Origin: a virus
Virus record (IMG/VR): IMGVR_UViG_3300035698_009139
DNA: 64,000 nt
Direction: 5' to 3' (one strand)
The translations under genes and the position numbers were made by a program. Under the pieces are notes generated by a model. The model saw nothing but the letters and a program-made list of their open reading frames with translations, did no database searches and had not been told where the DNA came from. Each line of letters starts with the position of its first letter. The stretch's first letter is position 1. Shown piece by piece: positions 38,699 to 53,528 of the stretch.

Positions 38699-38772
38699 GC
38701 GAGTATGGCAGAATGGCTATGCGCTTGCCTTCCAAGCAAGACACCCCGGTTCGATTCCGGGTACCCGCTCCA
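38699..38772 (+). tRNA. tRNA-Gly(TCC)
   Basis: Cloverleaf with encoded CCA. Confidence 0.9.
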
Positions 38773-38840
38773 AGTTTGACCATCTGTATTCAGCCAGGTG
38801 AAAAGGCGTTTGGGACAACGCTGCTGTGTCAATTAAATTG

Positions 38841-38915
38841 CGCGGGGAGAGCTGCTGTGCTCCGCCCAGGCTCATACCCTGAGGCTTCTAGGTTCAATTC
38901 CTGGCTCCGCAACCA
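38841..38915 (+). tRNA. tRNA-fMet(CAT)
   Basis: C1:A72 mismatch, CAT loop, CCA; atypical D loop. Confidence 0.75.
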
Positions 38916-38929
38916 ACAAAAGGTGATAT

Positions 38930-39208
38930 ATGACAGTGCATTATGTGAAATCGTGGTCGTATCTATATGCGGCCGCCGTGGCTGGTGTCAAGACACATGA
39001 CATCAGAGACAGAACCGAACGGGATTATAAAGTCGGCGACACTTTGGTGTTGCAGGAGTTTGATCAATCCACCGGCCGGTACTCCGGCCGGGAACAACGA
39101 TTCGAAATCACATACATTACTGATCGCGACGTACCATGTGCACTATCCAGTGCGGTGCTGGCGCGGGACTATTGTATCCTAAGTATTACCCTTTTAGGAG
39201 AGGGATAG
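38930..39208 (+). CDS. ASCH/DUF3850 domain protein
   Basis: HYVKSW, GVKTHDIR, RDYKVGDTLVLQEF, ITYI. Confidence 0.8.
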   Translation: MTVHYVKSWSYLYAAAVAGVKTHDIRDRTERDYKVGDTLVLQEFDQSTGRYSGREQRFEITYITDRDVPCALSSAVLARDYCILSITLLGEG

Positions 39209-39250
39209 AGGCAAGTTGGCGGGAATGAACTTTAAACCGCACATTATTAA

Positions 39251-39321
39251 CGCGTTTTAGTCTAAGTTAGGGCAGCACCTGTACGGGTGCAGGTGCAGTA
39301 TCGAATCTGCGAACGCGGCCA
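39251..39321 (+). ncRNA. non-canonical tRNA-like RNA A (6-nt anticodon loop, TATCGAAT T loop)
   Basis: CGCGTTT/GAACGCG acceptor plus GCCA. Confidence 0.65.
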
Positions 39322-39475
39322 AAGGTTGGCGAGGTGAATGCGCCCATGATCTATATCACACCAGGGATCCTTAATGTGATGTTCGCCATGGTCTACGTAA
39401 GTGGAGGCATGTTTCACCGCTCCTGGGTTCGATCGCCAGGAGAGCAGGTTCGACTCCTGTCGCCCGCATTATTAT

Positions 39476-39547
39476 GCGAGTATCGTCTAAGTTAGGACGG
39501 CGTCCCTTTGAGGGCGTTATGGAGTATCGAATCTTCTACTCGCACCA
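39476..39547 (+). ncRNA. non-canonical tRNA-like RNA B (same class as 39251)
   Basis: GCGAGTA/TACTCGC acceptor plus ACCA; D and T loops identical to RNA A. Confidence 0.65.
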
Positions 39548-39620
39548 CTTATAGTGGGGGCGCCGCCATGATATGTTTAAGCCGGCAACGGTGGTAACAC
39601 GAGGCGCATTTTCTAATTGA

Positions 39621-39708
39621 TCCTGTCGGGCTGGCTTGGTGAAGGCTACGGACTGTTAATCCGATGACACCTACGGGTGGTGAGGTTCGAATCCTCAGGC
39701 AGGAGCCA
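39621..39708 (+). tRNA. tRNA-Asn(GTT) with long variable arm
   Basis: CGGA-CTGTTAA-TCCG; CACC-TACG-GGTG variable arm; GCCA. Confidence 0.8.
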
Positions 39709-39718
39709 AATTCAACGT

Positions 39719-39792
39719 GTCGGTTTAGTTCAATGGTAGAACAGCTGCTTCCAAACCAGAAGACGTGGGTTCGATTCCTACAACCCTCGCCA
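39719..39792 (+). tRNA. tRNA-Trp(CCA), mismatched acceptor stem
   Basis: Canonical D and T arms, TTCCAAA loop, GCCA. Confidence 0.75.
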
Positions 39793-40088
39793 AAGTTTTG
39801 CGAACGCCTCCGTTGTGCGGCGTCTCATCTGGTCATGGGAAAGATGGGCGGACCAGTGCCCATTGGAACGCAAATTAAATTTGTAAGAACCACCTGCAGG
39901 TGCATCCCGGTCGAAAGCCCGGGCCCCGCAGCGACTATCGAGGTCAGGTTCTCGCAATCGATGCCGAAAACGGATAGCGTAACTACCTCTGATGAGTATA
40001 GTTGCAACTGTACAATTCAAGTACCGGGTGAATGGGACCGGGGCGGCAAACACTCATTGGCGGCTCCAAACCGCAGGCATCGAAAAGT

Positions 40089-40096
40089 TATAAATA
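40089..40096 (+). promoter_or_regulatory. T4-type late promoter
   Basis: TATAAATA. Confidence 0.65.
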
Positions 40097-40130
40097 CCTC
40101 ATGGAAAAGAAGACGTTCAAAGAGAGGTAT

Positions 40131-40433
40131 ATGATGGCTGTTAAAATAACTACAGCAACACTCGCGCTGATCGGTATGCTGGTCACTGGATGGCTCTCAA
40201 TGGGTTTATCTACACCCGTAATGAGCCATGAATTGGCTCCCATCATACAAGTAGCGGGCAGTTATCTGGACGACAAGATTCACAATTTACGCCGAGAGTC
40301 GTTAGACATTCGCGGCCGCCTAGCTGATGGCGTTAAGAATTCTCAGTACAAAAGATTGCTCAACGACCGCTTGCAGCAGATCAACACAGAGATCCTCAAG
40401 CTGCAAAGGCAGTCTAAACAAATCAAACGTTGA
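40131..40433 (+). CDS. membrane-anchored coiled-coil protein
   Basis: N-terminal TM/signal segment; late promoter; AGAGG RBS. Confidence 0.55.
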   Translation: MMAVKITTATLALIGMLVTGWLSMGLSTPVMSHELAPIIQVAGSYLDDKIHNLRRESLDIRGRLADGVKNSQYKRLLNDRLQQINTEILKLQRQSKQIKR

Positions 40434-40508
40434 CGGTGTAGCCCGTGGCCGGGTATACTAGTTAAGAGAGGGTAGCCCCCTCGTGGTTCGATCCCAACTA
40501 CACCGACC
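40434..40508 (+). ncRNA. degenerate tRNA-like RNA
   Basis: CGGTGTAG/CTACACCG stem, two hairpins, TGG-TTCGATC-CCA T loop. Confidence 0.45.
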
Positions 40509-40515
40509 TAATAAT

Positions 40516-40591
40516 GGCCCCATAGTTTAATGGTTAGAATAATGGTTTTTCATGCCGCAGATCACGGGTTCGATTCCCTGTGGGGCCGCCA
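40516..40591 (+). tRNA. tRNA-Glu(TTC)
   Basis: Cloverleaf with bulged T stem, GCCA. Confidence 0.8.
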
Positions 40592-40606
40592 ATACAGGAG
40601 CGCACA

Positions 40607-40753
40607 ATGGACATAAAAGTCCGGCCGATGACGGCCGAAGAGATGCGCTACATGGAAAAGCTGACACATCGGATACACGAAAGTGCCGAAGAAGAAGCTA
40701 AGAAACGCACCCGCAAATGGGGTGGAGCCAAGAAGAGCGAAACTAGCAGTTGA
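40607..40753 (+). CDS. small basic protein (48 aa)
   Basis: AGGAG RBS; MDIKVRPMTAEEMRY... Confidence 0.5.
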   Translation: MDIKVRPMTAEEMRYMEKLTHRIHESAEEEAKKRTRKWGGAKKSETSS

Positions 40754-40778
40754 CTAGATCCTGTTAGTCGTGTATATT
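40750..40778 (+). promoter_or_regulatory. sigma70-type promoter for the large ncRNA
   Basis: gTTGACT-N17-TATATT. Confidence 0.7.
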
Positions 40779-40784
40779 ATCTAA

Positions 40785-41800
40785 ATCGACAGACACAAAA
40801 CCGACTTTCCTTTGTCATGGACTTCGTAGTGAATGTACTGGATCCGTAACCAGATGTCTGTTAGAATCGGCAGTTTGCAGTCAGTCTGCCTCCTCTCACT
40901 AGCTTCGGCTTGAGGAAATCAAACACTGACCTGAGAGTAGTAATAGTAGAGTAATGGCGGTATGACGTCATTAGGATAACTGCAGCAATGCAGCCAAAGT
41001 TAGGACTTCACAGCCTAGCGCCAGAAATGGCCCTTTCATACAAGCTCAGATCTCCTGGCGACAGGTTATCACCGAAGGGTGGTAATAAGATCAGACAGTC
41101 AGCTGTGTGTCCGAAAGGATACTCCCCAGGCCATCCGGTGAGGGGGAAGCGGCCCGCAAGCTGCACCGCAGATGCAAACTGACCGAAGATTGATGATTAA
41201 TGAGTAGCCATAACAAGAGCACGAGCGATTTCAAGTAAGTGCAAGTGGCAGGACAATCGGTGATGGAATACCCCTTCTTAGGAATGTGGTGTTACTGATT
41301 CGAGAAGGACAGCGGAGTACCTGGGAGGGGAAAGGCAAGACGGTGTGTTGTATTTTGTCGGTAACAACCGGCGAAGCAACTGAGACAGCACATCGCAGTG
41401 ATTTCTAAGAAGCTCGTGGAGAGCATCTGCCTTTAGCAGAAGTGGTGGTTCGATCCTACCTCTTTATTTAAAACGCAAAGCCTGTCTCAGTACGTTGTTA
41501 AAGTCGTCTAATCCTAGAATCCTCGGATAATCTAGGTTGCGGATCCTCGCAAGGGAAAAGCAATTGATGGCCAGAAGGTCGGAAACTTCTAGCGGAGTTG
41601 TACTGCTCGCAAGGCAGACGGTTCGAAGGCTGTTGAGTAGCAACGTGCGATAAGTGAAATGCCACACTTTAAAAAAGGCGACGTTGTTCGCAGACTGCCC
41701 AGATCCTCGCGGAGGGGTAGTGGATAACCGGTTAACCTAGATTGCCAATTTAGGGTACGACTGAAGGTGCGGACGTGAAACGTGTAATCTCAGCGTTCTA
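40785..41800 (+). ncRNA. GOLLD-like giant structured RNA
   Basis: About 1 kb with no credible ORF; many GNRA/UUCG hairpins; ACTGAGACAG (41379) pairs CTGTCTCAGT (41482); AAAAAAGGC and terminal TAATCTCAG motifs recalled from GOLLD; lies among tRNAs. Confidence 0.7.
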
Positions 41801-41881
41801 TCGATTCCCCAGTATGGGTGTAACTAAGCTAGCCGACGCGGATATAGTCGTCGGTTGGTTTAGTCACATTTAGGAGGCACA

Positions 41882-42130
41882 ATGAAATTTATACGAAAGC
41901 CAGTGCCTGTGGAAGCAGTCCAATGGACTGGCGATAACCACAAACAAATGTCATCATTTGTCGGCGACCGACTCGAATACATGTCCTTCTTACAAGGACG
42001 GATTATGGAGCTGACAACGTCAAGGGGAATGATTAAGGTGCAGGTGAATGAATGGCTGGTCGTAGGACCATCCGGAGAGTTCTACGCACGAACGGACGAA
42101 GCGTTCTGGAAAGCACACGAAGAAATTTAA
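41882..42130 (+). CDS. conserved phage protein
   Basis: KFIRKPVPVEAVQWTG...GEFY; AGGAGG RBS. Confidence 0.75.
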   Translation: MKFIRKPVPVEAVQWTGDNHKQMSSFVGDRLEYMSFLQGRIMELTTSRGMIKVQVNEWLVVGPSGEFYARTDEAFWKAHEEI

Positions 42131-42131
42131 T

Positions 42132-42206
42132 GGGCGTGAAGCACAACGGTTGTGCAGGGGATTGTCTATTCCAAGGTTGCGGGTTCGAATCCCGTCTCGC
42201 TCGCCA
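42132..42206 (+). tRNA. tRNA-Asp(GTC)
   Basis: Cloverleaf, GCCA. Confidence 0.85.
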
Positions 42207-42224
42207 ATTTTATGAGGTATCATA

Positions 42225-42395
42225 ATGATATGCAAAAAGTGCCAAAAAGCGATGCATATAGGCCAAGTTATCGATCCGTTCCGGCCAGAAAATGCATTTG
42301 TTGATCCAGCACCCGCACCAATCAATAATGATACACTTGTGATGAAAGACTGTTGGAAATGTCCCACGTGTGGACATTCTGAATGGTTAGAATAA
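42225..42395 (+). CDS. small zinc-ribbon protein
   Basis: CKKC...CPTCGH; GAGG RBS. Confidence 0.6.
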   Translation: MICKKCQKAMHIGQVIDPFRPENAFVDPAPAPINNDTLVMKDCWKCPTCGHSEWLE

Positions 42396-42414
42396 ATTAT
42401 ATAATGGAGGTTAC

Positions 42415-42585
42415 ATGACTAAACTTCACATGTCTGTGGATGTTGCACCCAATACGATGGTATCAATGACCAAAGATGCGTACGACGAAATGCAGGAGGA
42501 TCTGCAAGTGTTGTATGCTCTACAGGCGGCCGGCGTGGATAGCTGGGATGGTTACGACTTCGCAATGGAGTCAATAGAAGATTAA
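42415..42585 (+). CDS. gp5.9-like RecBCD/AddAB inhibitor candidate
   Basis: SMTKDAYDEMQ...ALQAAGVDSWDGY; acidic; GGAGG RBS. Confidence 0.55.
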   Translation: MTKLHMSVDVAPNTMVSMTKDAYDEMQEDLQVLYALQAAGVDSWDGYDFAMESIED

Positions 42586-42586
42586 T

Positions 42587-42662
42587 GCCGCTCTTGTGTA
42601 GATGGTCTGCACGTCTGGTTGAAGTTCAGAAGGTCCGGGTTCGATTCCTGGGGGCGGCACCA
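42587..42662 (+). tRNA. tRNA-Phe(GAA)
   Basis: Cloverleaf, ACCA. Confidence 0.9.
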
Positions 42663-42668
42663 AAATAT

Positions 42669-42753
42669 GCGTCGGGAAAGTTAGTGGTTCTAGCACGAGG
42701 CCTGTAAAGCCTTTCTCTTCGGGGGAGAAGTTCGATTCTTCACCGGCGCACCA
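42669..42753 (+). tRNA. tRNA-Tyr(GTA)
   Basis: Type II variable arm, ACCA. Confidence 0.85.
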
Positions 42754-42759
42754 AACGAC

Positions 42760-42904
42760 GGACTGTTGGCGGAAGAGGCAGACGCACTGGGTTGATAGCC
42801 TGGGTTAGATACCACACGGGTCGGCATAGAAAACCTATCGTAATATCTCGAGTAAAAGCGGCAGTTAGTTTATGTTCTTGGAGGTTCGAATCCTTCACAG
42901 TCCA
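42760..42904 (+). ncRNA. tRNA-like RNA with large insertion in the anticodon arm
   Basis: GGACTGT/ACAGTCC acceptor, Leu-like D arm, GGAGG-TTCGAAT-CCTTC T arm. Confidence 0.65.
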
Positions 42905-42991
42905 CTATTACATCAGAAGTAAAACGAGGCGTTACAGCACGCCTATCCACAGAACGCGACGGCGCGCGGCCGGTAATCAGTCTGCGGAGGA

Positions 42992-43092
42992 CTCGCACAG
43001 CACACAGAAACGGGAAACGTTGGTTCGAATCCAACTGCAGCGGCGTAAGGTCGTTGTATCGTCTAGTGGCTTAGGACGCCCGTATGTGCGAG
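42992..43092 (+). ncRNA. circularly permuted tRNA mimic 1 (YrlA-like Y RNA)
   Basis: Order T arm, closed acceptor stem, D arm; ends pair through the extended anticodon stem. Confidence 0.75.
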
Positions 43093-43111
43093 AAGGATGT
43101 AATGATATTCA

Positions 43112-43196
43112 GCATCGAGGAAGGGGAGGTAGTGGTTCGAGTCCGCTTATTGCTACGGCGATATAGTCCAATTGGTAGGGCGCCCCGTGTCGATGT
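43112..43196 (+). ncRNA. circularly permuted tRNA mimic 2 (YrlA-like Y RNA)
   Basis: Same topology; GCATCGA/TCGATGT terminal stem. Confidence 0.75.
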
Positions 43197-43203
43197 AAAC
43201 AAT

Positions 43204-43277
43204 GAGCCCTTGGCAGAATGGTGATGCGTCGGTCTGCAAAACCGAAGGCTCCGGTTCAATTCCGGAAGGGTTCTCCA
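43204..43277 (+). tRNA. tRNA-Cys(GCA)
   Basis: Cloverleaf, U73, CCA. Confidence 0.92.
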
Positions 43278-43284
43278 AAATAAA

Positions 43285-43368
43285 GCCTCTGTGGTGAAAC
43301 GGCAGACACGCTAGTCTTAGGAACTAGTACCGCAAGGTGTGGGGGTTCGACTCCCTCCAGGGGCACCA
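43285..43368 (+). tRNA. tRNA-Leu(TAG)
   Basis: Type II, ACCA. Confidence 0.92.
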
Positions 43369-43619
43369 ATTCAAGGTATATTATGAAAGAAATTAGTAGA
43401 GAAATAATCAACGACAAATATGCGGCAATACGGTATAAATTAGATGAACCGATAATCCGAAGATATTATCCAATTCAATATGTGACAATTCGAATTGAAC
43501 GGTACGGGTGCCAACCGCTATTAATTTAAGGAAGAAATTAATGGCTCTATCGTCCAACGGTAAAACACTAGATTGTCTATCTTGTAGCCGGGGTTCGACT
43601 CCCTCCAGGGGCACCAATT
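43342..43619 (+). repeat. 30-bp direct repeat of the tRNA-Leu 3' end
   Basis: GGGGTTCGACTCCCTCCAGGGGCACCAATT at 43342-43371 and 43590-43619. Confidence 0.9.
43543..43616 (+). pseudogene. chimeric tRNA (Asp GTC 5' part plus Leu 3' end)
   Basis: Acceptor and T stems mismatched; 3' end identical to tRNA-Leu(TAG). Confidence 0.6.
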
Positions 43620-43622
43620 TCT

Positions 43623-43630
43623 TATAAATA
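43623..43630 (+). promoter_or_regulatory. T4-type late promoter
   Basis: TATAAATA upstream of tRNA-Ala and the internal-protein genes. Confidence 0.7.
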
Positions 43631-43639
43631 GGCAACAAT

Positions 43640-43714
43640 GGGGCGCTAGTGCTAACGGGAACACGTTGGTTTTGCATACCGAAGTTCGGGGTTCGATTCC
43701 CCGGCGCTCCACCA
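43640..43714 (+). tRNA. tRNA-Ala(TGC)
   Basis: G3:U70, ACCA. Confidence 0.93.
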
Positions 43715-43731
43715 ATTTTGAGGGGTTCACA

Positions 43732-44106
43732 ATGCAGCGATTTACACAGTTCACACTAAGTGAGATGGTTGATAAAGATGATACTGAAGATCAGAGCATC
43801 AAAAAGGCCGATCACGCAACGCTGCAGCTTAAGCATCGACACATGCAGAGTAGCTGGTCCGACGATAAAGGATCGCACCACACGTTGTCGCACAATTCAC
43901 ATGACGAAGTATCGAAGCCTAAGATAGACTTTCATCACTTCGTCGGCGGAAAGCATAAGGCCTCATTTAGTGTGCCGATCGATAAGACACAGAGCAGAGA
44001 AGATATAGGCAAAGCTGTTCCAAAGGGAACACATGCATCTGTCGCTGATAAGATTCATCAGCGCCACGCAGCAGACCATTCTTCTTACAACCACTACAAC
44101 TCATAA
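43732..44106 (+). CDS. His-rich putative internal head protein
   Basis: MQRFTQFTLSE, CTS-like N-terminus. Confidence 0.6.
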   Translation: MQRFTQFTLSEMVDKDDTEDQSIKKADHATLQLKHRHMQSSWSDDKGSHHTLSHNSHDEVSKPKIDFHHFVGGKHKASFSVPIDKTQSREDIGKAVPKGTHASVADKIHQRHAADHSSYNHYNS

Positions 44107-44117
44107 AGGACAGTCCT

Positions 44118-44519
44118 ATGGATTTCAGAGATTTCAAGTCATTCAACAGAGAATTTACACCCATCACTCGGTTAACTGAGTCTACAGAGCATGCGAAACT
44201 CCGTTCAGGCGCTAAAGAAGAATTTGGTTATGCTTCTAAGGGCGAGGGTGATTATCTCCCTATCAAAAAGAACGCGACGCATGAAGTACATGCCGGGGGC
44301 GGCCGCGGCGGGGCAACATACTCGGGCCGGCACAAGCCAGTCGGAAATGCATCACGGACAGACCATTCACACACAACAATTGATCATCCAGAAGACGGCG
44401 GCAGCCCAAACAAGGCTGACATTCATCGTCAGGTCACAAAACAGAATCCACATCTAGCGGTTGATCATCAAAAGGCTCTGACGCAGATCATTCATCACGA
44501 TGTGAAAGAGAATTACTAA
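44118..44519 (+). CDS. His-rich putative internal head protein
   Basis: FKSF...LTE leader; QNPHL module shared with the 12533 protein. Confidence 0.6.
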   Translation: MDFRDFKSFNREFTPITRLTESTEHAKLRSGAKEEFGYASKGEGDYLPIKKNATHEVHAGGGRGGATYSGRHKPVGNASRTDHSHTTIDHPEDGGSPNKADIHRQVTKQNPHLAVDHQKALTQIIHHDVKENY

Positions 44520-44526
44520 AAACAAA

Positions 44527-44612
44527 GCCGATGTGGTGAAACGGTAGACGCAGCTGCTTCAAACGTAGCCGAGAGCGATCTCATGGGGGTTCGAATCCCT
44601 TCATCGGCACCA
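44527..44612 (+). tRNA. tRNA-Leu(CAA)
   Basis: GCTGC-TTCAAAC-GTAGC, type II. Confidence 0.88.
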
Positions 44613-44623
44613 ATTAGAACAAT

Positions 44624-44716
44624 GGAAGGTGAACCAGCCAGGGGTTGGACCGGTCTTGAAAACCGTGGGAACCTGCGAGAGCAGGTTTGGGCTTCGAGTG
44701 CACCCGCCTTCCTCCA
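44624..44716 (+). tRNA. tRNA-Ser(TGA)
   Basis: Long variable arm, CCA. Confidence 0.85.
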
Positions 44717-44730
44717 ACACGGAGTACATT

Positions 44731-45075
44731 ATGAAAGCACCAAGTCGCATATCAATTCGGGTCAGAAAGACGGAATATTTGGCTGGCAGCCTATCAGAGG
44801 TCGCAAAGTTGATACAGACATGGATAGAGCAATATGGTCCCGAAGCGTATCTGGACATTGATATGGAGCATGAGTTTTACGGCAATGAATACGCAACAGC
44901 CGTAATCAATTACGACCGAGTGGAAAATGATTCCGAGTACAAGAAACGATGCGATAGAATAGATATCGATCGGCGGAAGGCCGAGCGAGCGGCCAAGAAG
45001 CAAAAAGCTGTCGATCTGAACACGTACAAACGCATAAAGAAAGAAATCGAAGCAGACAAACAATCCGGGGTGTAG
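44731..45075 (+). CDS. hypothetical protein
   Basis: GGAG RBS; stop codon lies inside tRNA-Pro. Confidence 0.6.
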   Translation: MKAPSRISIRVRKTEYLAGSLSEVAKLIQTWIEQYGPEAYLDIDMEHEFYGNEYATAVINYDRVENDSEYKKRCDRIDIDRRKAERAAKKQKAVDLNTYKRIKKEIEADKQSGV

Positions 45076-45143
45076 CTCAGGCTGGCCAGAGCTTTCCGTT
45101 TGGGGCGGAAAAGTCGTAGGTTCGAATCCTATCACCCCGACCA
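45066..45143 (+). tRNA. tRNA-Pro(TGG)
   Basis: Cloverleaf, ACCA. Confidence 0.92.
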
Positions 45144-45249
45144 ATTTGAGGAGAATGTGATGAACTGGTGGAAACCAATAATCTGACAAAGAAACAGTAA
45201 CATCAATACTAAGATCGCCGATGTTAGTATGCAGAATTAAAGTTATAAT

Positions 45250-45324
45250 GGTCGGGTGGCTTGAATGGGAAGCAACGTCTTTACATGGCGTGATATGTGG
45301 GTTCGAATCCCTCGCCGATCACCA
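45250..45324 (+). tRNA. tRNA-Val(TAC)
   Basis: ACGTC-TTTACAT-GGCGT, ACCA. Confidence 0.85.
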
Positions 45325-45436
45325 ATTTGGGAATTAACGCCAATTTCGAAGATAGGATCCGGAGCCGAAACGTGGGTAGTGAGAACCACTTCTTCCTGGA
45401 AGACGACGGACTGTTCTTCCAGCCAAATCAATTTAC

Positions 45437-45566
45437 GTCGGGTATCGCATAGTTGCGGTCGGTCTGATTATAACAGTTGTAAGCGCATGGTCAGTAGACG
45501 AATGGATAAAATAGAGTTTGATTGTACATGATGATTCTAGGGTGCAATAACCCCCGCCAGACACCA
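45437..45566 (+). ncRNA. CCA-terminated tRNA-like RNA with expanded core
   Basis: GTCGGGT/GCCAGAC plus ACCA; GGGTGCAATAACCC T-like arm. Confidence 0.45.
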
Positions 45567-45570
45567 GTTT

Positions 45571-45662
45571 AGTAACCGAGCCTCGTAGCTAGAGGTCCGC
45601 GGATGGATAAGCGACGGCGAAACGGTTCGACTCCGTATGTGACGGATACGTCACCGGTTACT
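45571..45662 (+). ncRNA. multi-branch RNA with D- and T-loop motifs
   Basis: AGTAACCG/CGGTTACT closing stem; ACGG-TTCGACT-CCGT; GTGACG-GATA-CGTCAC. Confidence 0.55.
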
Positions 45663-45674
45663 GATTTAACAAAT

Positions 45675-45746
45675 GGCTGATGTGATGGATCTGGCATGTG
45701 CCTCATACGCGCGTCGCACCCGGTCCGATTCCGGGATCAGCCACCA
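45675..45746 (+). tRNA. tRNA-Met(CAT) with degenerate D arm
   Basis: GGCTGAT/ATCAGCC, CTCATAC loop, ACCA. Confidence 0.7.
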
Positions 45747-45748
45747 AG

Positions 45749-45925
45749 TTTGCTGTCCGCTAATAACTGGATGAGGCTAGTTCAGTAAGCGACCGGCGTG
45801 TAGCCGGAGAATGGTGTGCAGAAATATCTATCGACTTCTAGTACGATACATATTATGCTGAATGATATACTGATAACTGGGTCTTTAACTCAACTTCGGT
45901 CTATTAGTTCAACCCAGCAAAGCCA
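45749..45925 (+). ncRNA. structured RNA ending in GCCA
   Basis: TTTGCTG/CAGCAAA terminal stem with internal hairpins. Confidence 0.45.
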
Positions 45926-45930
45926 ATTAT

Positions 45931-46005
45931 GGTTCTATAGTTCAATGGCAGAACGTTCGGCCGATAACCGAAAGAAGATGGGTTCAATTCCCTCTAGGAC
46001 TACCA
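45931..46005 (+). tRNA. tRNA-Ile(GAT)
   Basis: Cloverleaf (C33), ACCA. Confidence 0.87.
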
Positions 46006-46021
46006 ATTTGAGGATTATATA

Positions 46022-46291
46022 ATGAGCACTCTGACCAAAAATTATGCTATCTTGGTTTCGTACCGGGACAACAGCTATCGCTGGAGCACAACTAGGTTTG
46101 AGGCGAGCGTCGCTGATGATTTCATCACTAGAGTGTTTGACTCACTTGTGCAGTTGCCAGATATCCGCGAGGTGAAAATCTTCGAGGTGGCCGCCCGCCC
46201 AATGTTTCACACACATGCAACATTTGAAGAAGATCTCACATCAGACGCAATGATGGAGAAATTAGAGATATTGAAAGGATCATTACAATGA
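46022..46291 (+). CDS. hypothetical protein
   Basis: GAGG RBS. Confidence 0.55.
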   Translation: MSTLTKNYAILVSYRDNSYRWSTTRFEASVADDFITRVFDSLVQLPDIREVKIFEVAARPMFHTHATFEEDLTSDAMMEKLEILKGSLQ

Positions 46292-46752
46292 ACGTCCACC
46301 AATTCTATTTCGTCAGAGATGATCTCGAGTCAATGAATCCCGGCAAGATGGCCGCACAGGTATCGCACGCCGCAGCTATGTTGGCTGAGCGTGGGCTGTG
46401 CTCAGGTAATTCTACGTTCTATGATTTATACAAGTCGTGGATGAATCAGACGACAGATAACTTCGGGGTCGCTCACACGAGGGCCGCTGATCCTCATGAT
46501 ATTTTTGACATGGGTGCTGATCTGGATGATGACTATGAATCCCAGTTGTCGGCGATCATCAACAATGCTACCTTAGAGGGAGCGGTACCTAACATTATTG
46601 ATGTTACTGTAACAGACCCGGAATATCCATTGAAAGATGGCCGCACGGTTCATCACTTTCCAATGCAGACTGTTCGGGCCGTGATGTTTGATGTAGACAA
46701 ACATCCTACACTCGGCGCCGCATTCCAGAAGATGTCCTACAGGCATCCATAA
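46288..46752 (+). CDS. peptidyl-tRNA hydrolase, Pth2 family
   Basis: VRDDLESMNPGKMAAQVSHAA; VTDP. Confidence 0.75.
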   Translation: MNVHQFYFVRDDLESMNPGKMAAQVSHAAAMLAERGLCSGNSTFYDLYKSWMNQTTDNFGVAHTRAADPHDIFDMGADLDDDYESQLSAIINNATLEGAVPNIIDVTVTDPEYPLKDGRTVHHFPMQTVRAVMFDVDKHPTLGAAFQKMSYRHP

Positions 46753-46756
46753 CAAT

Positions 46757-46831
46757 CTCCCTGTCGTCTAGTGGCTAGGACGCTACCCTCTCAAGGTAGA
46801 AACGTCGGTTCAAGTCCGATCAGGGGGCCCA
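46757..46831 (+). tRNA. tRNA-Glu(CTC)
   Basis: Cloverleaf, CCA. Confidence 0.88.
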
Positions 46832-46877
46832 ATTAACCGGTATAGACCGTGGCAATCGTCCCCAGTGGAATTTTAAT

Positions 46878-46961
46878 GGGCCGCTGAAGCTGAAACTAAG
46901 TCTGGGACAGGAGCGGTCTTTTAAACCGTATGCGTGGGTTCGATTCCCCGGCGGCCCCCCA
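46878..46961 (+). tRNA. tRNA-Lys(TTT) with enlarged atypical D region
   Basis: GCGGT-CTTTTAA-ACCGT; GGGCCGC/GCGGCCC; CCA. Confidence 0.7.
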
Positions 46962-46967
46962 AACAAT

Positions 46968-47042
46968 CGCCGGCGTAGTGTAATGGTAACACGACAGGTT
47001 GTGGTCCTGTTAATGAGAGTTCGATCCTCTCCGTCGCGACCA
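46968..47042 (+). tRNA. tRNA-His(GTG), A73, no G-1
   Basis: ACAGG-TTGTGGT-CCTGT, ACCA. Confidence 0.85.
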
Positions 47043-47050
47043 ATTAGATG

Positions 47051-47079
47051 TTGACCTCTATATGAGGTTGATGTAAGAT
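47051..47079 (+). promoter_or_regulatory. sigma70-type early promoter
   Basis: gTTGACC-N17-TAAGAT. Confidence 0.6.
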
Positions 47080-47099
47080 GAGTTAACATTCAGCATGAG

Positions 47100-47303
47100 G
47101 TGATTATGATTATCGATTCACGAGGACCAGATGGCAATGCCTTTACAATCATGGGCCAGGTCAAAGTACTTCTGAAACAAATTGGCCGATCGGATGAATG
47201 GGAAGATATTCGGGAACGGATGTTCAGCGGATCGTATGATGAGCTTTGCGACATTGCAGAAGAAGTCACTAACGGCTCAATTGTCGTCACAAATCGTGGA
47301 TAG
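47100..47303 (+). CDS. conserved phage hypothetical protein
   Basis: GPDGNAFTIMG...SGSYD. Confidence 0.7.
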   Translation: MIMIIDSRGPDGNAFTIMGQVKVLLKQIGRSDEWEDIRERMFSGSYDELCDIAEEVTNGSIVVTNRG

Positions 47304-47455
47304 CCGCCAGCGAATTTTTGCGCAGAGGATGACTGAAGTCAGCCACCGTCGGCAAGAATTCAAGTGTGATACCGCCAGAAGAATGGCGGCCGAATATATA
47401 AGACGGCTTGACAAAGAGCGGTCGGATAAACTGTTGAAAGATAAGGACGGTGACA

Positions 47456-47626
47456 ATGGCGTATGACCACACGACGTACTATAAGCCTGTGACGCATTCA
47501 CGCCGCAAGGACGGATGCCCAAAATGCCATAGCACCGCAGATTACGTTGAAGCTATTGGTTTTGAACAGTGCGGGGCCTGCGGATACTTCGTAGACTATC
47601 ACCGCGGAACAGTGGAGAATGCATGA
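47456..47626 (+). CDS. small zinc-ribbon protein
   Basis: CPKC...CGACG. Confidence 0.55.
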   Translation: MAYDHTTYYKPVTHSRRKDGCPKCHSTADYVEAIGFEQCGACGYFVDYHRGTVENA

Positions 47627-48113
47627 TGAACGACGCATATCAAGATCCGATGGTGACGGTGGCGATTTATCTCGCAATCGCCACGACCACGGCTAAGATC
47701 TTTCACAGAGGACAAGTGCGCTGGGATGGTTCCGATTATTTCGACAACCACATCCAGCAAGTGACGGAAGATGTGTGTGTAAAGCACTCAGGCCACGTCG
47801 ATGGACCAACGCTCGCCGCGATTGCGTTGCTGCACGATATCATCGAGGACACCGCATGTGACGAAGAGATGTTACGGTCCCTCGGATTTGATGACCGTGT
47901 GATGGATGGCGTGCTGGCGATTACGAAAGTATATGATGGGTCAGAGGATTACTGGCAGTATCTGGAACGCGTCAAACGCAACCCAGACGCCCGCGCCGCG
48001 CCGTCAAGATCTGTGACATCGGCAATAACCTTGCTGACATTATGGAAAACTATCCGAACAAGACAAAATCAATCACGAAATACAACAAAGCGTTGGATTT
48101 CCTAAACAGTTAA
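47623..48113 (+). pseudogene. Mesh1/SpoT-like HD hydrolase frameshifted by a 5-bp duplication
   Basis: HRGQVR..Y..H, ALLHDIIEDT; removing one CGCGC copy at 47992 restores ARAVKICDIGNNL. Confidence 0.7.
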
Positions 48114-48114
48114 T

Positions 48115-48188
48115 AGCGCTGAAGCCAACTGGTGCGGCGGCAGGCTTTGACCCTGCTTTAGAAGGTTCGATTCCTTCCAGTGCTTCCA
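48115..48188 (+). tRNA. tRNA-Gln(TTG)
   Basis: Cloverleaf, CCA. Confidence 0.88.
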
Positions 48189-48193
48189 ATTTA

Positions 48194-48325
48194 TGGCGAT
48201 GCAGAGCATTCTAATGGATAATGCGCCAGAGACTTAATGTACATACCATAGCGTTGCCACGCAGTACGGTGGTGGCAGGAGGTTGTCTCAGGAGATAAGG
48301 GGGTTCGATTCCCTCCATCGTCACA
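48194..48325 (+). ncRNA. tRNA-like RNA with expanded anticodon arm
   Basis: TGGCGATG/CATCGTCA; GCATT/AATGC D arm; GAGAC/GTCTC flanking an insert; TTCGATT T loop. Confidence 0.65.
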
Positions 48326-48335
48326 GTTTTAATAT

Positions 48336-48414
48336 GCACCTGTATGCCGCCGGTCTTCGAAACCGGAGAAAGCTAACTGGATACATGGAGGTTCGACTCC
48401 TCTCAGGTGCGCCA
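48336..48414 (+). tRNA. D-armless tRNA-Arg(TCG) with D-loop sequence in the variable region
   Basis: GCACCTG/CAGGTGC, CCGGT-CTTCGAA-ACCGG, T arm, GCCA. Confidence 0.7.
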
Positions 48415-48426
48415 ATTATTCTAACT

Positions 48427-48434
48427 TATAAATA
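48427..48434 (+). promoter_or_regulatory. T4-type late promoter for the HNH gene
   Basis: TATAAATA. Confidence 0.7.
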
Positions 48435-48460
48435 CTCCAGAATCTACAGGAGATTGTTAT

Positions 48461-48880
48461 ATGAAGAAGTGCACTAATTGTAAAGAAGAAAAATCAGAAG
48501 AGCACTTTGCTTGGAAAAATAAAGCTAAAGGCTTGAGACAAAACAAGTGCAAAATATGTTACAGCGCCTACAACAGAACATATTACCATTCTGGTGAAAA
48601 GCATAAACAAAAAGCACGAGTGAGGGCCAATATTGAAAAAACTGCTCAAAAGTATCGAGCATGGAAGGACTTACAATCCTGTAATGAATGTGATGAATCT
48701 GCCGCAGAGTGTTTAGACCTTCACCACCTAGATCCGACAAAAAAGGATTTTTCATTGTCAGGATCATACCAAATGTATACCTGGGAACGTATACAGAAAG
48801 AATTACATAAGTGTGTGGTGTTATGTGCCAACTGCCATCGAAAAGTCCACACTGGCCGAATACAAATATTGGACCCGTAG
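48461..48880 (+). mobile_element. free-standing HNH endonuclease gene
   Basis: CxxC pairs, LDLHH.DP, CVVLCANCHRKVH; AT-rich; between two tRNA-Arg genes. Confidence 0.75.
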
Positions 48881-48947
48881 CACAACTGGATAGTGCATCG
48901 ATCTTCTAAATCGAGGGTTGCAGGTTCAAGTCCTGCCGGGTCCACCA
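48871..48947 (+). tRNA. tRNA-Arg(TCT)
   Basis: Cloverleaf, A20, ACCA. Confidence 0.92.
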
Positions 48948-49128
48948 ACATAGGAATAGTTATGGAAGATGCAGAACGGATTAAACGGATTAAAGAATGG
49001 ATCGGGGAATCTTCTTTGGAAGATGTTATCGACACCGCGATGAATCGTCACACAGTCCGCGTCGGCCGCCGCAAACATATCGCCGCGATAGTACGGGAGG
49101 CGTTTGAAATCGTCTCTACTATCAGCGA

Positions 49129-49725
49129 ATGAGATTCATCGGAGACATACACGGCAACTTTATGCAATACTGTGGGATCGCCCAACAGGTGGGTCACTCA
49201 GTGCAGGTTGGCGACTATGGCGCCGGGTTTTCATATCCGTATCCTGAATTCGATGAAAACAATCACCGATTCATCCGAGGCAATCACGATAGTCCGGAGG
49301 AGTGCAGGCGACATCCAAATTGGATTAACGATGGTCGCGTTGAAGAAACGATTCACTCCGGCGCAATCATGTATGTGGGTGGTGCTAGGTCAATTGATCA
49401 AGAGTGGCGCACTGAAGGTCACAACTGGTGGCCTGAAGAAGAGCTGTCGATAGCAGAGCTTGGGCGGATGGTCGACAGGTACATCGACCTGAAACCGGCC
49501 GTGATGGTTACACACGATTGCCCAGAAGCAGTTGTTCATCCATTCTTCGGAAGTTTAGCAGTATCAGAAGATACGCGCACCCGGCAAGCATTTCAGTCGA
49601 TGTGGGAAGCTCACAAGCCAGATCTTTGGATCTTTGGCCACTGGCATTACGCAGTTGACCAGAAAGTATTAGGTACAAGATTTATATGCCTAGATCAGTT
49701 AACATATGTTGACCTCGACTTATAA
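49129..49725 (+). CDS. calcineurin-like metallophosphoesterase
   Basis: GDIHG, VGD, RGNHD, THDCP, FGHWH. Confidence 0.88.
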   Translation: MRFIGDIHGNFMQYCGIAQQVGHSVQVGDYGAGFSYPYPEFDENNHRFIRGNHDSPEECRRHPNWINDGRVEETIHSGAIMYVGGARSIDQEWRTEGHNWWPEEELSIAELGRMVDRYIDLKPAVMVTHDCPEAVVHPFFGSLAVSEDTRTRQAFQSMWEAHKPDLWIFGHWHYAVDQKVLGTRFICLDQLTYVDLDL

Positions 49726-49744
49726 ATCGGGTATGATAATGTAA

Positions 49745-49830
49745 GCCTGTTTGGTGGAATGGAATACGCAGCAGCTTTAAACCCTGCCGGCCTAACGGCC
49801 ATGAGAGTTCGAATCTCTCAACGGGCACCA
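49745..49830 (+). tRNA. tRNA-Leu(TAA)
   Basis: Type II, ACCA; promoter gTTGACC-N17-TATGAT at 49709. Confidence 0.85.
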
Positions 49831-49836
49831 ATTTGT

Positions 49837-49912
49837 ATCCCTGTAGTTCAGTGGTAGCAACGTTCCGCTCATAACGGAAATGTCGGGGGTTCGATTCCCT
49901 CCGGGGATACCA
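49837..49912 (+). tRNA. tRNA(CAT), probably Ile2
   Basis: TTCCG-CTCATAA-CGGAA, ACCA. Confidence 0.8.
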
Positions 49913-49931
49913 ATTTATGATGGAGACTAAT

Positions 49932-50159
49932 ATGAAAGATGATTTTCTGACGACGCTGCAAGCAGTGGACTGGGAAGATATGGATCTGGATGATTGCAAG
50001 GACAAGTTCAAAGAGCTTGCAGCCTTATGGGACTTCCAGGCGAAGCGAGACGAATATTGCCGCGCTGTCGACGGATGCAGAACCAAGAAGCGAGTGATCT
50101 CGTTCATCTGGAGCATCTGCCTTTCCGGCCTGCAGAAGAAGAATACGTACGCACGATGA
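49932..50159 (+). CDS. hypothetical protein
   Basis: GGAG RBS. Confidence 0.55.
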   Translation: MKDDFLTTLQAVDWEDMDLDDCKDKFKELAALWDFQAKRDEYCRAVDGCRTKKRVISFIWSICLSGLQKKNTYAR

Positions 50160-50386
50160 CGCTACAACAATGCCAGCCAATCGTAGACAAGTTCTGCGGT
50201 GACAAAGAAGACTGGCTGGATGCAGTAGAAGCGTTGGGCGTCCGAGGATTTTATTGGAACGGTAACCACAAAGCGTTCCTAGGATTACACCACCGAACAA
50301 ATGCAGTCGTTGCAGTATTTGAAACGAAAGCTGAGTGCGATAAGTGGTGCGAATACGTTAACGATCTATTTGATCATAGCCTCTAA
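50156..50386 (+). CDS. hypothetical protein
   Basis: ATGA overlap; stop inside tRNA-Thr. Confidence 0.5.
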   Translation: MTLQQCQPIVDKFCGDKEDWLDAVEALGVRGFYWNGNHKAFLGLHHRTNAVVAVFETKAECDKWCEYVNDLFDHSL

Positions 50387-50453
50387 AGCATAAATGGCGA
50401 TGCGCGGGTTTCGTAAACCTGATAACTCAGTTCGATTCTGGGTGGAGGCACCA
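50379..50453 (+). tRNA. tRNA-Thr(CGT)
   Basis: Cloverleaf, ACCA. Confidence 0.88.
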
Positions 50454-50470
50454 ATTTGAGGAGTTTGATT

Positions 50471-50950
50471 ATGCACTATGCGATGTATTCAGAGGACTAC
50501 GATGGAACTGACACCAGCAATTATCGCACCTATAATAGAGGTGATATGTATTTGGCCAGTGCTGATACGTATGATGAGCTGATAGATAAACTGGCTATAG
50601 AGCAGATTCGATTGAACGAGATTCGCCGAGACCATCCTGGGTCAACCGAATACTATATCAGCACTCACTGGTGTTTTCGAGCGGACATTCATGTATCATC
50701 TAGTTGCAATGATGGCATTGAATTGTTTGGTGCTGATGTAGGTGTCGAGGGAGCACACCTTGAATCAGACATATATAAGAAGTCGGCCGCATGGAAGGCT
50801 TATTTAGATAAGACTGCCAAAGAAAAGAAAAAGGCCCTGTCAATAAAGAAGGCGGCTAATACCCGCGCCCAGAATAAAAAAGATGCCGATAGAGAAAATA
50901 AGGAACGGAAGTTGCTTGCTGAGCTAAAGGAGCGATATGAAAAGGAATGA
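50471..50950 (+). CDS. hypothetical protein
   Basis: GAGGAG RBS; basic C-terminal helix. Confidence 0.6.
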   Translation: MHYAMYSEDYDGTDTSNYRTYNRGDMYLASADTYDELIDKLAIEQIRLNEIRRDHPGSTEYYISTHWCFRADIHVSSSCNDGIELFGADVGVEGAHLESDIYKKSAAWKAYLDKTAKEKKKALSIKKAANTRAQNKKDADRENKERKLLAELKERYEKE

Positions 50951-51200
50951 GGAACGCCAACTGGCGATGACTGCATTCGACGCGCTTCCAATACTGCTCA
51001 GAGACAAGATCAATTACTGTTTTGAGAGCCTGCCATATAAATATATATTGGACGTATATGTTTGGTGGCAGGACGGCCAACCCATCGGCCGAATAGCAGA
51101 TGAGATCGATACGATAGCCAGAACTAACACAATTGCGTTTCGAGAAACACAGCGAATCAGAGACATGATACGAAAAAGAAATAACGCTTCCAAAGCATAA
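50937..51200 (+). CDS. hypothetical protein
   Basis: AAGGAG RBS; stop inside tRNA-Thr. Confidence 0.55.
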   Translation: MKRNEERQLAMTAFDALPILLRDKINYCFESLPYKYILDVYVWWQDGQPIGRIADEIDTIARTNTIAFRETQRIRDMIRKRNNASKA

Positions 51201-51260
51201 GTGGCGATGCAGGGGTTTTGTAATCCTCAGAACTCGGTTCGATTCCGGGTGGGAGCACCA
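51186..51260 (+). tRNA. tRNA-Thr(TGT)
   Basis: Cloverleaf, ACCA. Confidence 0.9.
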
Positions 51261-51274
51261 ATTAGGAGAGCACT

Positions 51275-51462
51275 ATGAAGATGTGTGAAGAATGTGGAGG
51301 ATCCGGCAGCCTGCTGGTCAGGGTTAAACCCCTGGCAATTGCAGACTGCCCGATATATGCTGGGGTTGTGGTACTTGGCCACCTCCGGACAGGCCACTGA
51401 ATTTCACGATTCAGATGCATCCTTTCAAACGAAAGAAGCCAAGGAAAAAGAAGCACCCGTAG
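51275..51462 (+). pseudogene. DnaJ-type zinc-finger mini-protein frameshifted by an extra AT
   Basis: CEECGGSG; removing AT at 51353-51358 gives CPICWGCG. Confidence 0.55.
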
Positions 51463-51529
51463 CTCAGCTGGATAGAGCGCCGCCCTGCGAAGGCGGAGGC
51501 CACAAGTTCGAATCTTGTCGGATGCACCA
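51453..51529 (+). tRNA. tRNA-Arg(GCG)
   Basis: CCGCC-CTGCGAA-GGCGG, A20, ACCA. Confidence 0.9.
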
Positions 51530-51703
51530 ATTTAGAAAGTGATATTATGACTGATGATGAAGTTGCAATGATTGCGGCACGATTTTTTATCGATGAATTC
51601 GAAAATGATCCAACAGCCGTTGCTGAGTGGGTTGAATCTGCCAACCTCAATGTAGAGGAATTCATCACCCACGCAATAAAGCTTGCACAGAAATAGATAA
51701 CAT

Positions 51704-51780
51704 GCGGGCCAGGTAGCACTGGGTCAATGCGTCGCGTTGCCAACGCGAAGAGGTGGGTTCGATTCCCACGGTCCGCGCCA
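51704..51780 (+). tRNA. tRNA-Gly(GCC)
   Basis: TCGCG-TTGCCAA-CGCGA; atypical D arm and G73. Confidence 0.8.
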
Positions 51781-51784
51781 AAAT

Positions 51785-51941
51785 TTGAAGTCGCTTGTCC
51801 CTATTAATGGGCGGCTCCATAACGAGACTAGTTCCATGACCTGTAGGGGGTCGCAAAAGAATTCCGGGCTCATAATCCGGAGATGCGGGGTTGGTATGCC
51901 CGCCGGCGCTTCGGCGTCGTAGTTCAAGGTCTCTAGGAACA
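51785..51941 (+). ncRNA. circularly permuted tRNA(CAT) mimic with UUCG-sealed acceptor stem
   Basis: GAAT, CCGGG-CTCATAA-TCCGG, AGAT, GCGGG/CCCGC, CGGCGC-TTCG-GCGTCG, TA, GTTC. Confidence 0.65.
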
Positions 51942-51943
51942 AC

Positions 51944-52021
51944 GGATAGGTAGTAGTGTTGGCTATACGAACGGTCTCTTAAACCGCCTAGGCGTGGGTT
52001 CGATTCCCACCCTATCCACCA
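51944..52021 (+). tRNA. tRNA-Lys(CTT)
   Basis: GGATAGG/CCTATCC, CTCTTAA loop, ACCA. Confidence 0.85.
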
Positions 52022-52034
52022 ATTGAACTAACTG

Positions 52035-52063
52035 TTGTAATCGATTACAAAGTCGTGTATAAT
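52035..52063 (+). promoter_or_regulatory. sigma70-type promoter
   Basis: gTTGTAA-N17-TATAAT. Confidence 0.55.
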
Positions 52064-52090
52064 TATTACAGCAACTGAGAGGAGGCACAG

Positions 52091-52654
52091 ATGATCGGAT
52101 TACGTACACTTGTTCTAAACAACAATTACATCCCCATCAGCATGTACCCCCTTCATCACATCCCAGCAGAGGATGCTATGACACGCGTATACAATGAAAC
52201 GTGTTATGTTGTGCTCGAATACGATCGACCAATTTTGACGCAGCAGACAGGCTTAAAATGGCCTAGCGTGATTGCCAGGATAGCCACCGACTATGTATCG
52301 ACGGCCGTTAAGCTCCGGCCCGAATCTCTGTATTACCGAGATCATGGAAAGTGTCAATACTGCCACGAACCTGTTACAGTTAATGCAATGACATGCGATC
52401 ACGTTGTCCCTCAATCTCTTGGAGGCCCATTCACTTGGGAAAACATCGTTACAGCATGTTCCAGGTGTAACGGAGCTAAAGGTAACCACCGGCCGGAGGG
52501 CCGTTGGAAACTTCCGTACAAGCCGAAGAAGCCGACGTATCATCAACTATTGAAGAACCGAAGACAGTTTCCTATTACGGTTGGCGATATTAATTGGATG
52601 CAATTCCTAGGCGACTGGGATGGGCAAGTAAACATTAACGCTGCTGGGGCTTAG
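52091..52654 (+). CDS. HNH endonuclease (McrA/HNH_5 type)
   Basis: TLVLN..Y.PI, RD..CQYC, DHVVPQS.GG..WENIVTACSRCN. Confidence 0.9.
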   Translation: MIGLRTLVLNNNYIPISMYPLHHIPAEDAMTRVYNETCYVVLEYDRPILTQQTGLKWPSVIARIATDYVSTAVKLRPESLYYRDHGKCQYCHEPVTVNAMTCDHVVPQSLGGPFTWENIVTACSRCNGAKGNHRPEGRWKLPYKPKKPTYHQLLKNRRQFPITVGDINWMQFLGDWDGQVNINAAGA

Positions 52655-52676
52655 GTCTCAGTAGCCGGAGTACATT

Positions 52677-53351
52677 ATGTTACATAAGCGATTTAGTATG
52701 AACAAACTCGGCCGCGACTTTGTCGTTGGCGACCTTCACGGTTGCTTTGGCCAATTGTTGGACGAGCTGAGTAAGATCGAGTTCAATGACCGGGCGGATC
52801 GGATGTTCTCTGTCGGTGATCTGATTGATCGCGGCAAGGAGAATATCCAATGCGCCGAACTGCTGCACGCACCCTGGTTTTTCTCAGTCAAAGGCAACCA
52901 CGAGGACATGTTCGTGGCTGCAATGAATTCAAACGCCGGCACACACGACATGATGATGTATTTTCAAAATGGCGGCAACTGGGTATACGATGAGTTGGAC
53001 AATGCTATCAATGCCCCAGCTGACAAAGCACAGTGGATCGCCGAATTCGTCAGATTGTTTTCACAACTACCGCTGTCAATCACCGTCCCTACGAGTAACG
53101 GACTGGTCGGTATCTGTCATGCACAGCCTCCAGAGGACTGGGAGCAGGTGCAGTTCGAAACAGAAGCTAAGCTGCTATGGGCAAGACAAGTTGTCCAAAT
53201 GACGGCTCCGATCTTTCGCGTCGACAATGTGTGGAAGACGTACCACGGCCATACACCACTCGATGAGAAAAAAGTCGTCGGCAATGCACACTTTATTGAC
53301 ACCGGCGCTGTGTTCGATGGTGGTAAGCTGACCGTTGAAAGGATTCACTGA
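52677..53351 (+). CDS. Ser/Thr protein phosphatase (lambda NinI/PrpA family)
   Basis: GDLHG, VGDLIDRG, GNHE, HGHT, IDTG. Confidence 0.9.
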   Translation: MLHKRFSMNKLGRDFVVGDLHGCFGQLLDELSKIEFNDRADRMFSVGDLIDRGKENIQCAELLHAPWFFSVKGNHEDMFVAAMNSNAGTHDMMMYFQNGGNWVYDELDNAINAPADKAQWIAEFVRLFSQLPLSITVPTSNGLVGICHAQPPEDWEQVQFETEAKLLWARQVVQMTAPIFRVDNVWKTYHGHTPLDEKKVVGNAHFIDTGAVFDGGKLTVERIH

Positions 53352-53528
53352 TGAAAACCATTGAGGTCACTGATCAGAATGCTATATATGTTGATGGTAC
53401 CAGAATCACTAACCGTTCGACAAAATGGGGAAGGCATCGAGTCATCTCCTGTTTCAAAGGCCATAACGTAGAAGATGCTCTAAAGTCTGCCGGCTTCGAG
53501 CATCTGCTAAAATTTATAGGAGACTGAT

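Follow-up and report, generated by a model that had tools for sequence, protein, structure and literature searches.

A predicted GOLLD RNA gene with a shrunken tRNA-shaped linker module in the tRNA island of a T4-like marine phage

The locus and its match to the GOLLD family

The window, that is, the whole stretch of 64,000 nucleotides of viral DNA that was analyzed, encodes a gp43-type DNA polymerase with best matches to T4-like cyanophages (46% identity), as well as a DnaB-like helicase, ribonucleotide reductase, DNA ligase, and nicotinamide phosphoribosyltransferase. ARAGORN called 25 tRNA genes at positions 38699 to 54130, all on the + strand. An earlier reading made from the letters alone (here, the sequence-only reading) had proposed a GOLLD-like giant RNA of about 1 kb located among phage tRNA genes, and this location was confirmed. 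The source is a large uncultured T4-like marine phage, with GOLLD placed inside its tRNA island. The features of the locus are collected in Table 1; the 48-amino-acid open reading frame (ORF) that follows the upstream tRNA gene had no PHROG match.

Table 1. Predicted features at and around the GOLLD gene, in window coordinates
Feature	Position	Strand	Size, sequence, or basis
tRNA-Glu(UUC), upstream	40516-40591	+	ARAGORN, Rfam
48-aa ORF with AGGAG site, between tRNA-Glu and promoter	40607-40753	+	read from sequence
Sigma-70-type promoter (predicted)	40750-40778	+	-35 TTGACT 40750-40755, 17-nt spacer, -10 TATATT 40773-40778
Lineage-specific leader	40785-40953	+	169 nt, predicted start to conserved GOLLD 5' end
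GOLLD 5' domain	40954-41339	+	386 nt; alignment A2, RNAalifold, covariation
First helix of 5' domain, TGGCG/CGTCA	40955-40959 / 40966-40970	+	
GAAA-capped hairpin of 5' domain	41110-41119	+	
GOLLD 3' domain	41340-41796	+	457 nt; RF02032 positions 1-416
Linker-closing 9-bp helix, enclosing the variable linker	41380-41388 with 41482-41490	+	covariation
Shrunken tRNA-shaped module	41398-41472	+	covariance model of relatives' linker tRNAs
Long-range helix of 3' domain	41492-41499 with 41639-41646	+	Rfam consensus, covariation
Long hairpin	41815-41872	+	~23-bp stem, 19 nt after GOLLD 3' end
Downstream phage gene, 82 aa	41882-42130	+	phrog_419, unknown function, E 1.2e-16

The comparison with the Rfam GOLLD and ROOL models that had been proposed along with the sequence-only reading was run with cmscan over the whole window. 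It revealed a single GOLLD match (RF02032), at 41340-41796 on the + strand, with a score of 163.4 bits and an E value of 5.3e-44. The match is not truncated and spans model positions 1 to 416 of 416, and the GOLLD family call was thus confirmed end to end and above the curated gathering score of 150 bits. The score is close to the bottom of the subfamily range (152 to 218 bits in relatives), and the Rfam model covers the conserved 3' domain only. In 40600-41950, ROOL gave no match, whether at its gathering score or with E ≤ 10, and a permissive Rfam scan (E ≤ 10) of the same interval returned nothing else credible beside GOLLD.

Other properties of the region pointed out by the sequence-only reading were also recovered. 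The kilobase has no long ORF, the longest being 64 amino acids on the + strand (40988-41182) and 67 amino acids on the - strand. Hairpins with GNRA or UUCG tetraloops are dense, as had been claimed: counting those with at least three closing pairs in 40785-41800, we found nine on the + strand, versus 2.5 ± 1.6 in shuffled sequences, and two on the - strand. The + strand of 40785-41339 folds better than shuffled sequences (z = -3.45), which is not so for the - strand (z = -0.54).

Two of the long-range pairings suggested previously correspond to helices of the 3' domain. The pairing placed at 41379/41482 is a perfect 9-bp helix between CTGAGACAG (41380-41388) and CTGTCTCAG (41482-41490). Eight of its nine positions are paired in 31 or 32 of 32 sequences and the ninth in 24 of the 32, with two to four pair types at five positions. 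The pairing placed at 41492/41639 joins ACGTTGTT (41492-41499) to AGCAACGT (41639-41646) and corresponds to the long-range helix in the Rfam consensus. The first seven of its pairs are present in 30 to 32 of 32 sequences, with three to six pair types each. GTTGAG (41632-41637) can pair with CTCAGC (41789-41794) in the window, and the part of this pairing that relatives share is confined to an invariant GAG/CUC.

The 5' domain and the linker module

Relatives were found by scanning viral contigs with a 5' motif common to the window and the first two relatives (L061 and L086). These two were the only true relatives recovered from the viral contigs with the initial pattern, which was built on the 3'-terminal motif and gave mostly chance matches. 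The 5'-motif scan yielded 54 loci, 31 of them non-redundant, with ~55% identity to the window, and alignment A2 combines these 31 relatives with window positions 40910-41349 (32 sequences in all). Its consensus fold, calculated with RNAalifold, consists of 92 pairs in 20 helices. Across the alignment, 96.5% of the pair cells are paired, versus 34 to 42% when the partners are slid by one to three columns, and compensatory changes on both sides occur in 73 of the 92 pairs. The covariation score is 0.663, versus at most 0.099 in the slid alignments, and was reached by none of 500 shuffles. The Rfam GOLLD 3' domain lies directly downstream of the 5' domain in 19 of the 20 relatives tested (152 to 218 bits). 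On the strength of this covariation and of the linked Rfam 3' domain, the part of the RNA at 40954-41339 is therefore assigned as the GOLLD 5' domain, homologous to that of 31 diverse relatives.

The window keeps 75 of the 92 consensus pairs of the 5' domain, the lowest number in the set, partly through misalignment. Its 5' domain is without one hairpin common to most relatives (A2 columns 201-247) and has a private insert of ~20 nt (A2 columns 479-512). No close relative of the window GOLLD was found in the phage records, viral contigs, or metagenome contigs searched. A DNA search of a phage collection (50,697 records) with 40760-41900 gave no match, a search for close relatives by way of the downstream gene found none, and of two metagenome scans with window-specific patterns, the first was empty and the second gave just L171, a chance match rich in GC. 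Taken by its family model and covariation, the segment 40954-41796 on the + strand is a genuine GOLLD RNA gene and an ordinary new, rather divergent member of the family.

Five of the viral contigs contain a complete GOLLD 5' domain without a downstream 3' domain (L130:6473-7371, and also L136, L146, L148, and L168). The 5' domain of the L130 type reaches 261 bits with an HMM built from alignment A2, and in the five contigs a tRNA-Met and two tRNA-Gly stand in the place of the 3' domain. These loci could represent either a stand-alone 5' "cap" domain or broken GOLLD genes.

Within the 3' domain of the window, the linker is 93 nt long and contains a tRNA-shaped module of reduced size. The linker tRNAs of 22 relatives were used to build a covariance model, which matched 41398-41472 over its full length (24.2 bits, E ~3e-5), with 14 of 14 modeled pairs standard and three stems intact. 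These are a D stem (GCTC/GAGC) with the 5-nt loop GTGGA, an "anticodon" stem (TCTGC/GCAGA) with the 5-nt loop CTTTA, and a T arm of GGTGG-TTCGATC-CTACC (41444-41460). Deletions of 2 nt each are present in its D loop, anticodon loop, and variable region. The module received no ARAGORN call and no match to the Rfam tRNA model (RF00005) at E ≤ 10, and its anticodon loop measures 5 nt, as against the 7 nt of an RF00005 tRNA.

At the equivalent linker position of the relatives, ARAGORN calls a tRNA in ~40 of the 54 loci, with many anticodons, and these tRNAs score 49 to 62 bits on the Rfam tRNA model. Nearly all of them begin with a T, lack CCA, and show one or two mismatches at positions 2-3, in the outer part of the acceptor stem. 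The linker tRNA of L061 (L061:6491-6565) has the anticodon CUA, which reads a stop codon, and those of L150, L155, and L167 have anticodon loops of 8 nt. The idea of hypervariable anticodons on a constant tRNA body was dropped, as nine modules of relatives with an identical anticodon stem showed 0.30 differences per site in the loop versus 0.23 in the body. The occurrence of tRNAs and of a pseudo-tRNA in the GOLLD linker has been published before (PMC12286853, PMC12990946, PMC6582537).

As judged by the covariance model, the module of the window is homologous to the linker tRNAs of the relatives, non-decoding, and structurally maintained. That it is intact yet non-decoding suggests that the insert is not selected for decoding and that GOLLD is not kept for this purpose. 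A more specific reading is that the linker module is a non-decoding structural module kept inside a cage and not a stored tRNA gene. We offer this reading tentatively, at well below even odds, because the decoding loops of the window module are shrunken and its elbow-forming parts are kept (all three stems perfect, the GG in the D loop, and a T loop of canonical form), and because the modules of relatives have acceptor mismatches and no CCA. If it is true, selection would preserve an elbow recognized by some tRNA-binding partner inside the cage, and the GOLLD family would have its first concrete functional handle.

Two alternatives concern the identity and the integrity of the gene. Were the region protein coding, or a member of another large RNA family such as ROOL, nothing more could be cited in favor than its short ORFs of at most 67 amino acids, and we consider this next to impossible: ROOL and other Rfam matches are absent at E ≤ 10, indels among the relatives are not multiples of three, and changes in the pairs are compensatory. 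A GOLLD copy that is decaying and has already lost its function would fit an Rfam score at the low end, a 5' domain with the fewest conserved pairs of the set, and a linker module that neither ARAGORN nor Rfam recognizes as a tRNA. However, the RF02032 model is matched over its full length, the long-range helices are perfect, the + strand of the 5' part folds better than its shuffles, and the shrunken module has standard pairs throughout, though its stem sequences differ from those of the relatives. In addition, several of the apparent mismatches in the 5' domain are alignment slips, as in the hairpin at 41069-41084, which has a perfect 6-bp stem and a GAAG loop. Decay is thus highly improbable, and we keep to the reading of the locus as a divergent GOLLD gene.

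Leader, promoter, and 3' hairpin

Family conservation begins at window position 40954 (ATGGCGGTATGACGTCA). The published construct of the solved GOLLD env-38 begins at the equivalent of this position and ends at the equivalent of window 41796 (supplementary table, PMC12286853). Because the start of conservation and the ends of the env-38 construct sit at equivalent positions, we take 40954-41796 (843 nt) as the conserved core. The sequence-only reading had described the 5' half as extended, and this was not borne out; a 5' domain of normal size (386 nt) is preceded by a non-conserved leader of 169 nt. The leader, 40785-40953, showed no similarity in 170 loci (nhmmer). It is not repeated within the window and matches neither an Rfam family at E ≤ 10 nor the covariance model of the tRNA module, and its fold is no better than that of shuffled sequences (z = +0.62). 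Non-conserved, unrepeated, not specially folded, and Rfam negative, these 169 nt are therefore read as a leader and not as an enlarged domain. We also rejected the leader as a separate element, given that it has no Rfam, repeat, or tRNA-module match.

The TTGACT/TATATT promoter described in the sequence-only reading is present at 40750-40778, with 10 of 12 consensus matches, and would direct transcription from a start predicted near 40785. Its -35 box overlaps the TGA stop codon of the small ORF at 40607-40753. Of 31 relatives, 17 have a site with at least 10 of 12 matches within 260 nt upstream of the RNA on the same strand and 2 have one on the opposite strand, and such sites are almost absent from the RNA bodies. 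From these sequence patterns, it is likely that GOLLD has its own sigma-70-type promoter.

Seven sigma-70-like sites with at least 10 of 12 matches were counted on the + strand of the 20-kb island. Apart from the one at 40750-40778, + strand matches of this quality lie at 40430-40459, 47083, 49709, 50508, 51022, and 52035. As promoter-like sites occur inside the tRNA island, the island may therefore not be one promoter-less block.

Downstream of the core, the long hairpin that had been noticed at about 41816-41869 was recovered at 41815-41872, with a folding energy of -30 kcal/mol and a z value of -7.3; none of 200 shuffles was as stable. It extends to one base before AGGAGG, the ribosome-binding site of the downstream gene. 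No T run follows it, and it was not called by the terminator scan. Just past the GOLLD end, four of the relatives have a plain intrinsic terminator and at least 11 have a long hairpin. On position and fold, we infer that the window hairpin may be an end-protecting or processing element.

A recurrent long hairpin lies within ~30 nt of the GOLLD 3' end in L121, L125, L126, L132, L155, and L161, and the same hairpin is present in L162, L164, L167, L169, and L170. The sequences TTTTGATGAWACA... and ...TGTWTCTTCTAA are common to its arms; the hairpin also has two U-U mismatches and an apical insert that varies, and it corresponds to no Rfam family. The window hairpin, at the equivalent place, is unrelated to it in sequence.

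Two further alternatives bear on where the RNA begins and how it is made. GOLLD might not be its own transcription unit: the promoter would then be fortuitous and the RNA cut from a long tRNA-island precursor, by tRNA-processing nucleases or through RNase III cleavage at the 3' hairpin. A lone 10/12 promoter match is not above chance (three per 2 kb, versus 2.1 expected), the island has its seven such sites on the + strand, and the entire island is co-oriented. Moreover, a tRNA lies between promoter and GOLLD in two relatives (L138 and L143), and the 3' hairpin is not a canonical terminator and has a ribosome-binding site immediately after it. These points have to be set against the strand bias of the upstream sites among the relatives and the position of the window site, situated exactly in the interval from the upstream ORF's stop codon to the RNA; an own promoter and processing could also both operate. 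Weighing these, we find an origin from a precursor doubtful, with an appreciable chance of being correct. The other alternative takes the whole of 40785-41800 as one folded RNA of ~1 kb, in which the leader would be an additional 5' structural domain. The leader is without an ORF and has a UUCG-capped hairpin at 40904, and some relatives also have 166 to 214 nt between promoter and P1. However, this distance ranges from 12 to 214 nt among the relatives and is just 12 to 73 nt in others, the leader folds no better than its shuffles and resembles no relative, and the solved env-38 RNA starts where the core does. An additional folded domain is thus improbable, and we retain the reading of a separately transcribed GOLLD RNA with a leader of no special fold.

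A model of the RNA and its known counterparts

Our joint model, to which we assign a probability of roughly 0.88, combines a GOLLD RNA with its own transcription, a two-domain fold, a cage, a linker module, and a role for the 3' hairpin. In the first of five proposed steps, host RNA polymerase would start at the 40750-40778 promoter and first make the 169-nt leader, in which no fold is recognizable. The RNA would then fold into separate 5' and 3' domains of 386 and 457 nt. In the third step, by analogy with solved members of the family, loop-loop and A-minor contacts may join ~12 to 14 chains into a closed two-layer, RNA-only cage. The variable linker, shut by the 41380/41482 helix, would point into this cage carrying the tRNA-shaped module. 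Lastly, the hairpin at 41815-41872 may mark or protect the 3' end, or may be a processing site at which the RNA is detached from the mRNA of the downstream gene. As anatomy, the second and fourth steps are established by the covariance model and by covariation, and around them we infer the other three.

The missing hairpin, the private insert, and the fewest consensus pairs mean that chain number and assembly are not readable from the window sequence; 5'-domain differences of such kind alter the chain number between solved GOLLD members. As to the role of the cage, our guess is that it might serve the phage takeover of translation in lytic growth, by holding or presenting the tRNA-shaped RNA or its partner.

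GOLLD RNAs are among the largest bacterial and phage RNAs of unknown function, and their cage structure has been solved only recently. With the copy described here, the family gains a divergent member, encoded by a T4-like marine phage, with proposed boundaries given by a promoter, a leader, an 843-nt core, and a 3' hairpin. It is also a natural variant in which the tRNA-shaped insert of the linker is shrunken yet structurally intact; beyond this linker variant, the locus is a matter of routine annotation.

Among known systems, ROOL, which forms a homo-8-mer cage, is likewise a large phage-associated RNA found near tRNA genes and assembled into an RNA-only cage, but it is unrelated to the window RNA in sequence and fold. 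Mycobacterial GOLLD RNAs in tRNA arrays have a tRNA-Phe or a pseudo-tRNA in linker J13/15, and one such insert, annotated as a pseudo-tRNA, had undetectable separate expression (PMC6582537; Morgado et al. 2020, cited in PMC12990946). The window RNA resembles these in lying inside a large tRNA array and in having a tRNA-derived linker insert. It differs from them in host range and in the build of its insert, which has perfect stems and 5-nt D and anticodon loops.

In the two solved GOLLD structures, the RNA alone forms a two-layer cage with the linker inside, its caps made of 5' domains and its rings of 3' domains (PMC12286853, PMC12990946). The Streptococcus agalactiae GOLLD (700 nt, homo-12-mer, PDB 9L0R; PMC12990946) has the conserved 3' domain in common with the window RNA. 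It is without P9, P11a-c, and P21b, whereas in the window neither hairpin of the Rfam P21 region is missing. With these P21 hairpins and the GAAA-capped hairpin of its 5' domain, the window RNA looks closer to the env-38 type than to the streptococcal one.

GOLLD env-38, which comes from a marine metagenome, is 833 nt long and forms a homo-14-mer cage (PDB 9MEE; Kretsch et al. 2025, PMC12286853). The window core, at 843 nt, is of similar length and belongs to the same Rfam family, and a by-eye comparison with the published construct matched the first motif (ATGGC..TATG..CGTCA) and the last (GTGTA.TCTCAGC.T). The two RNAs also share an organization of two domains with a variable linker, a marine origin, and a position beside tRNA genes. 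The window alone has a 169-nt leader after the promoter and a long hairpin after the 3' end, and whereas the linker of env-38 is a disordered loop of ~40 nt, that of the window RNA is predicted to hold a tRNA-shaped module.
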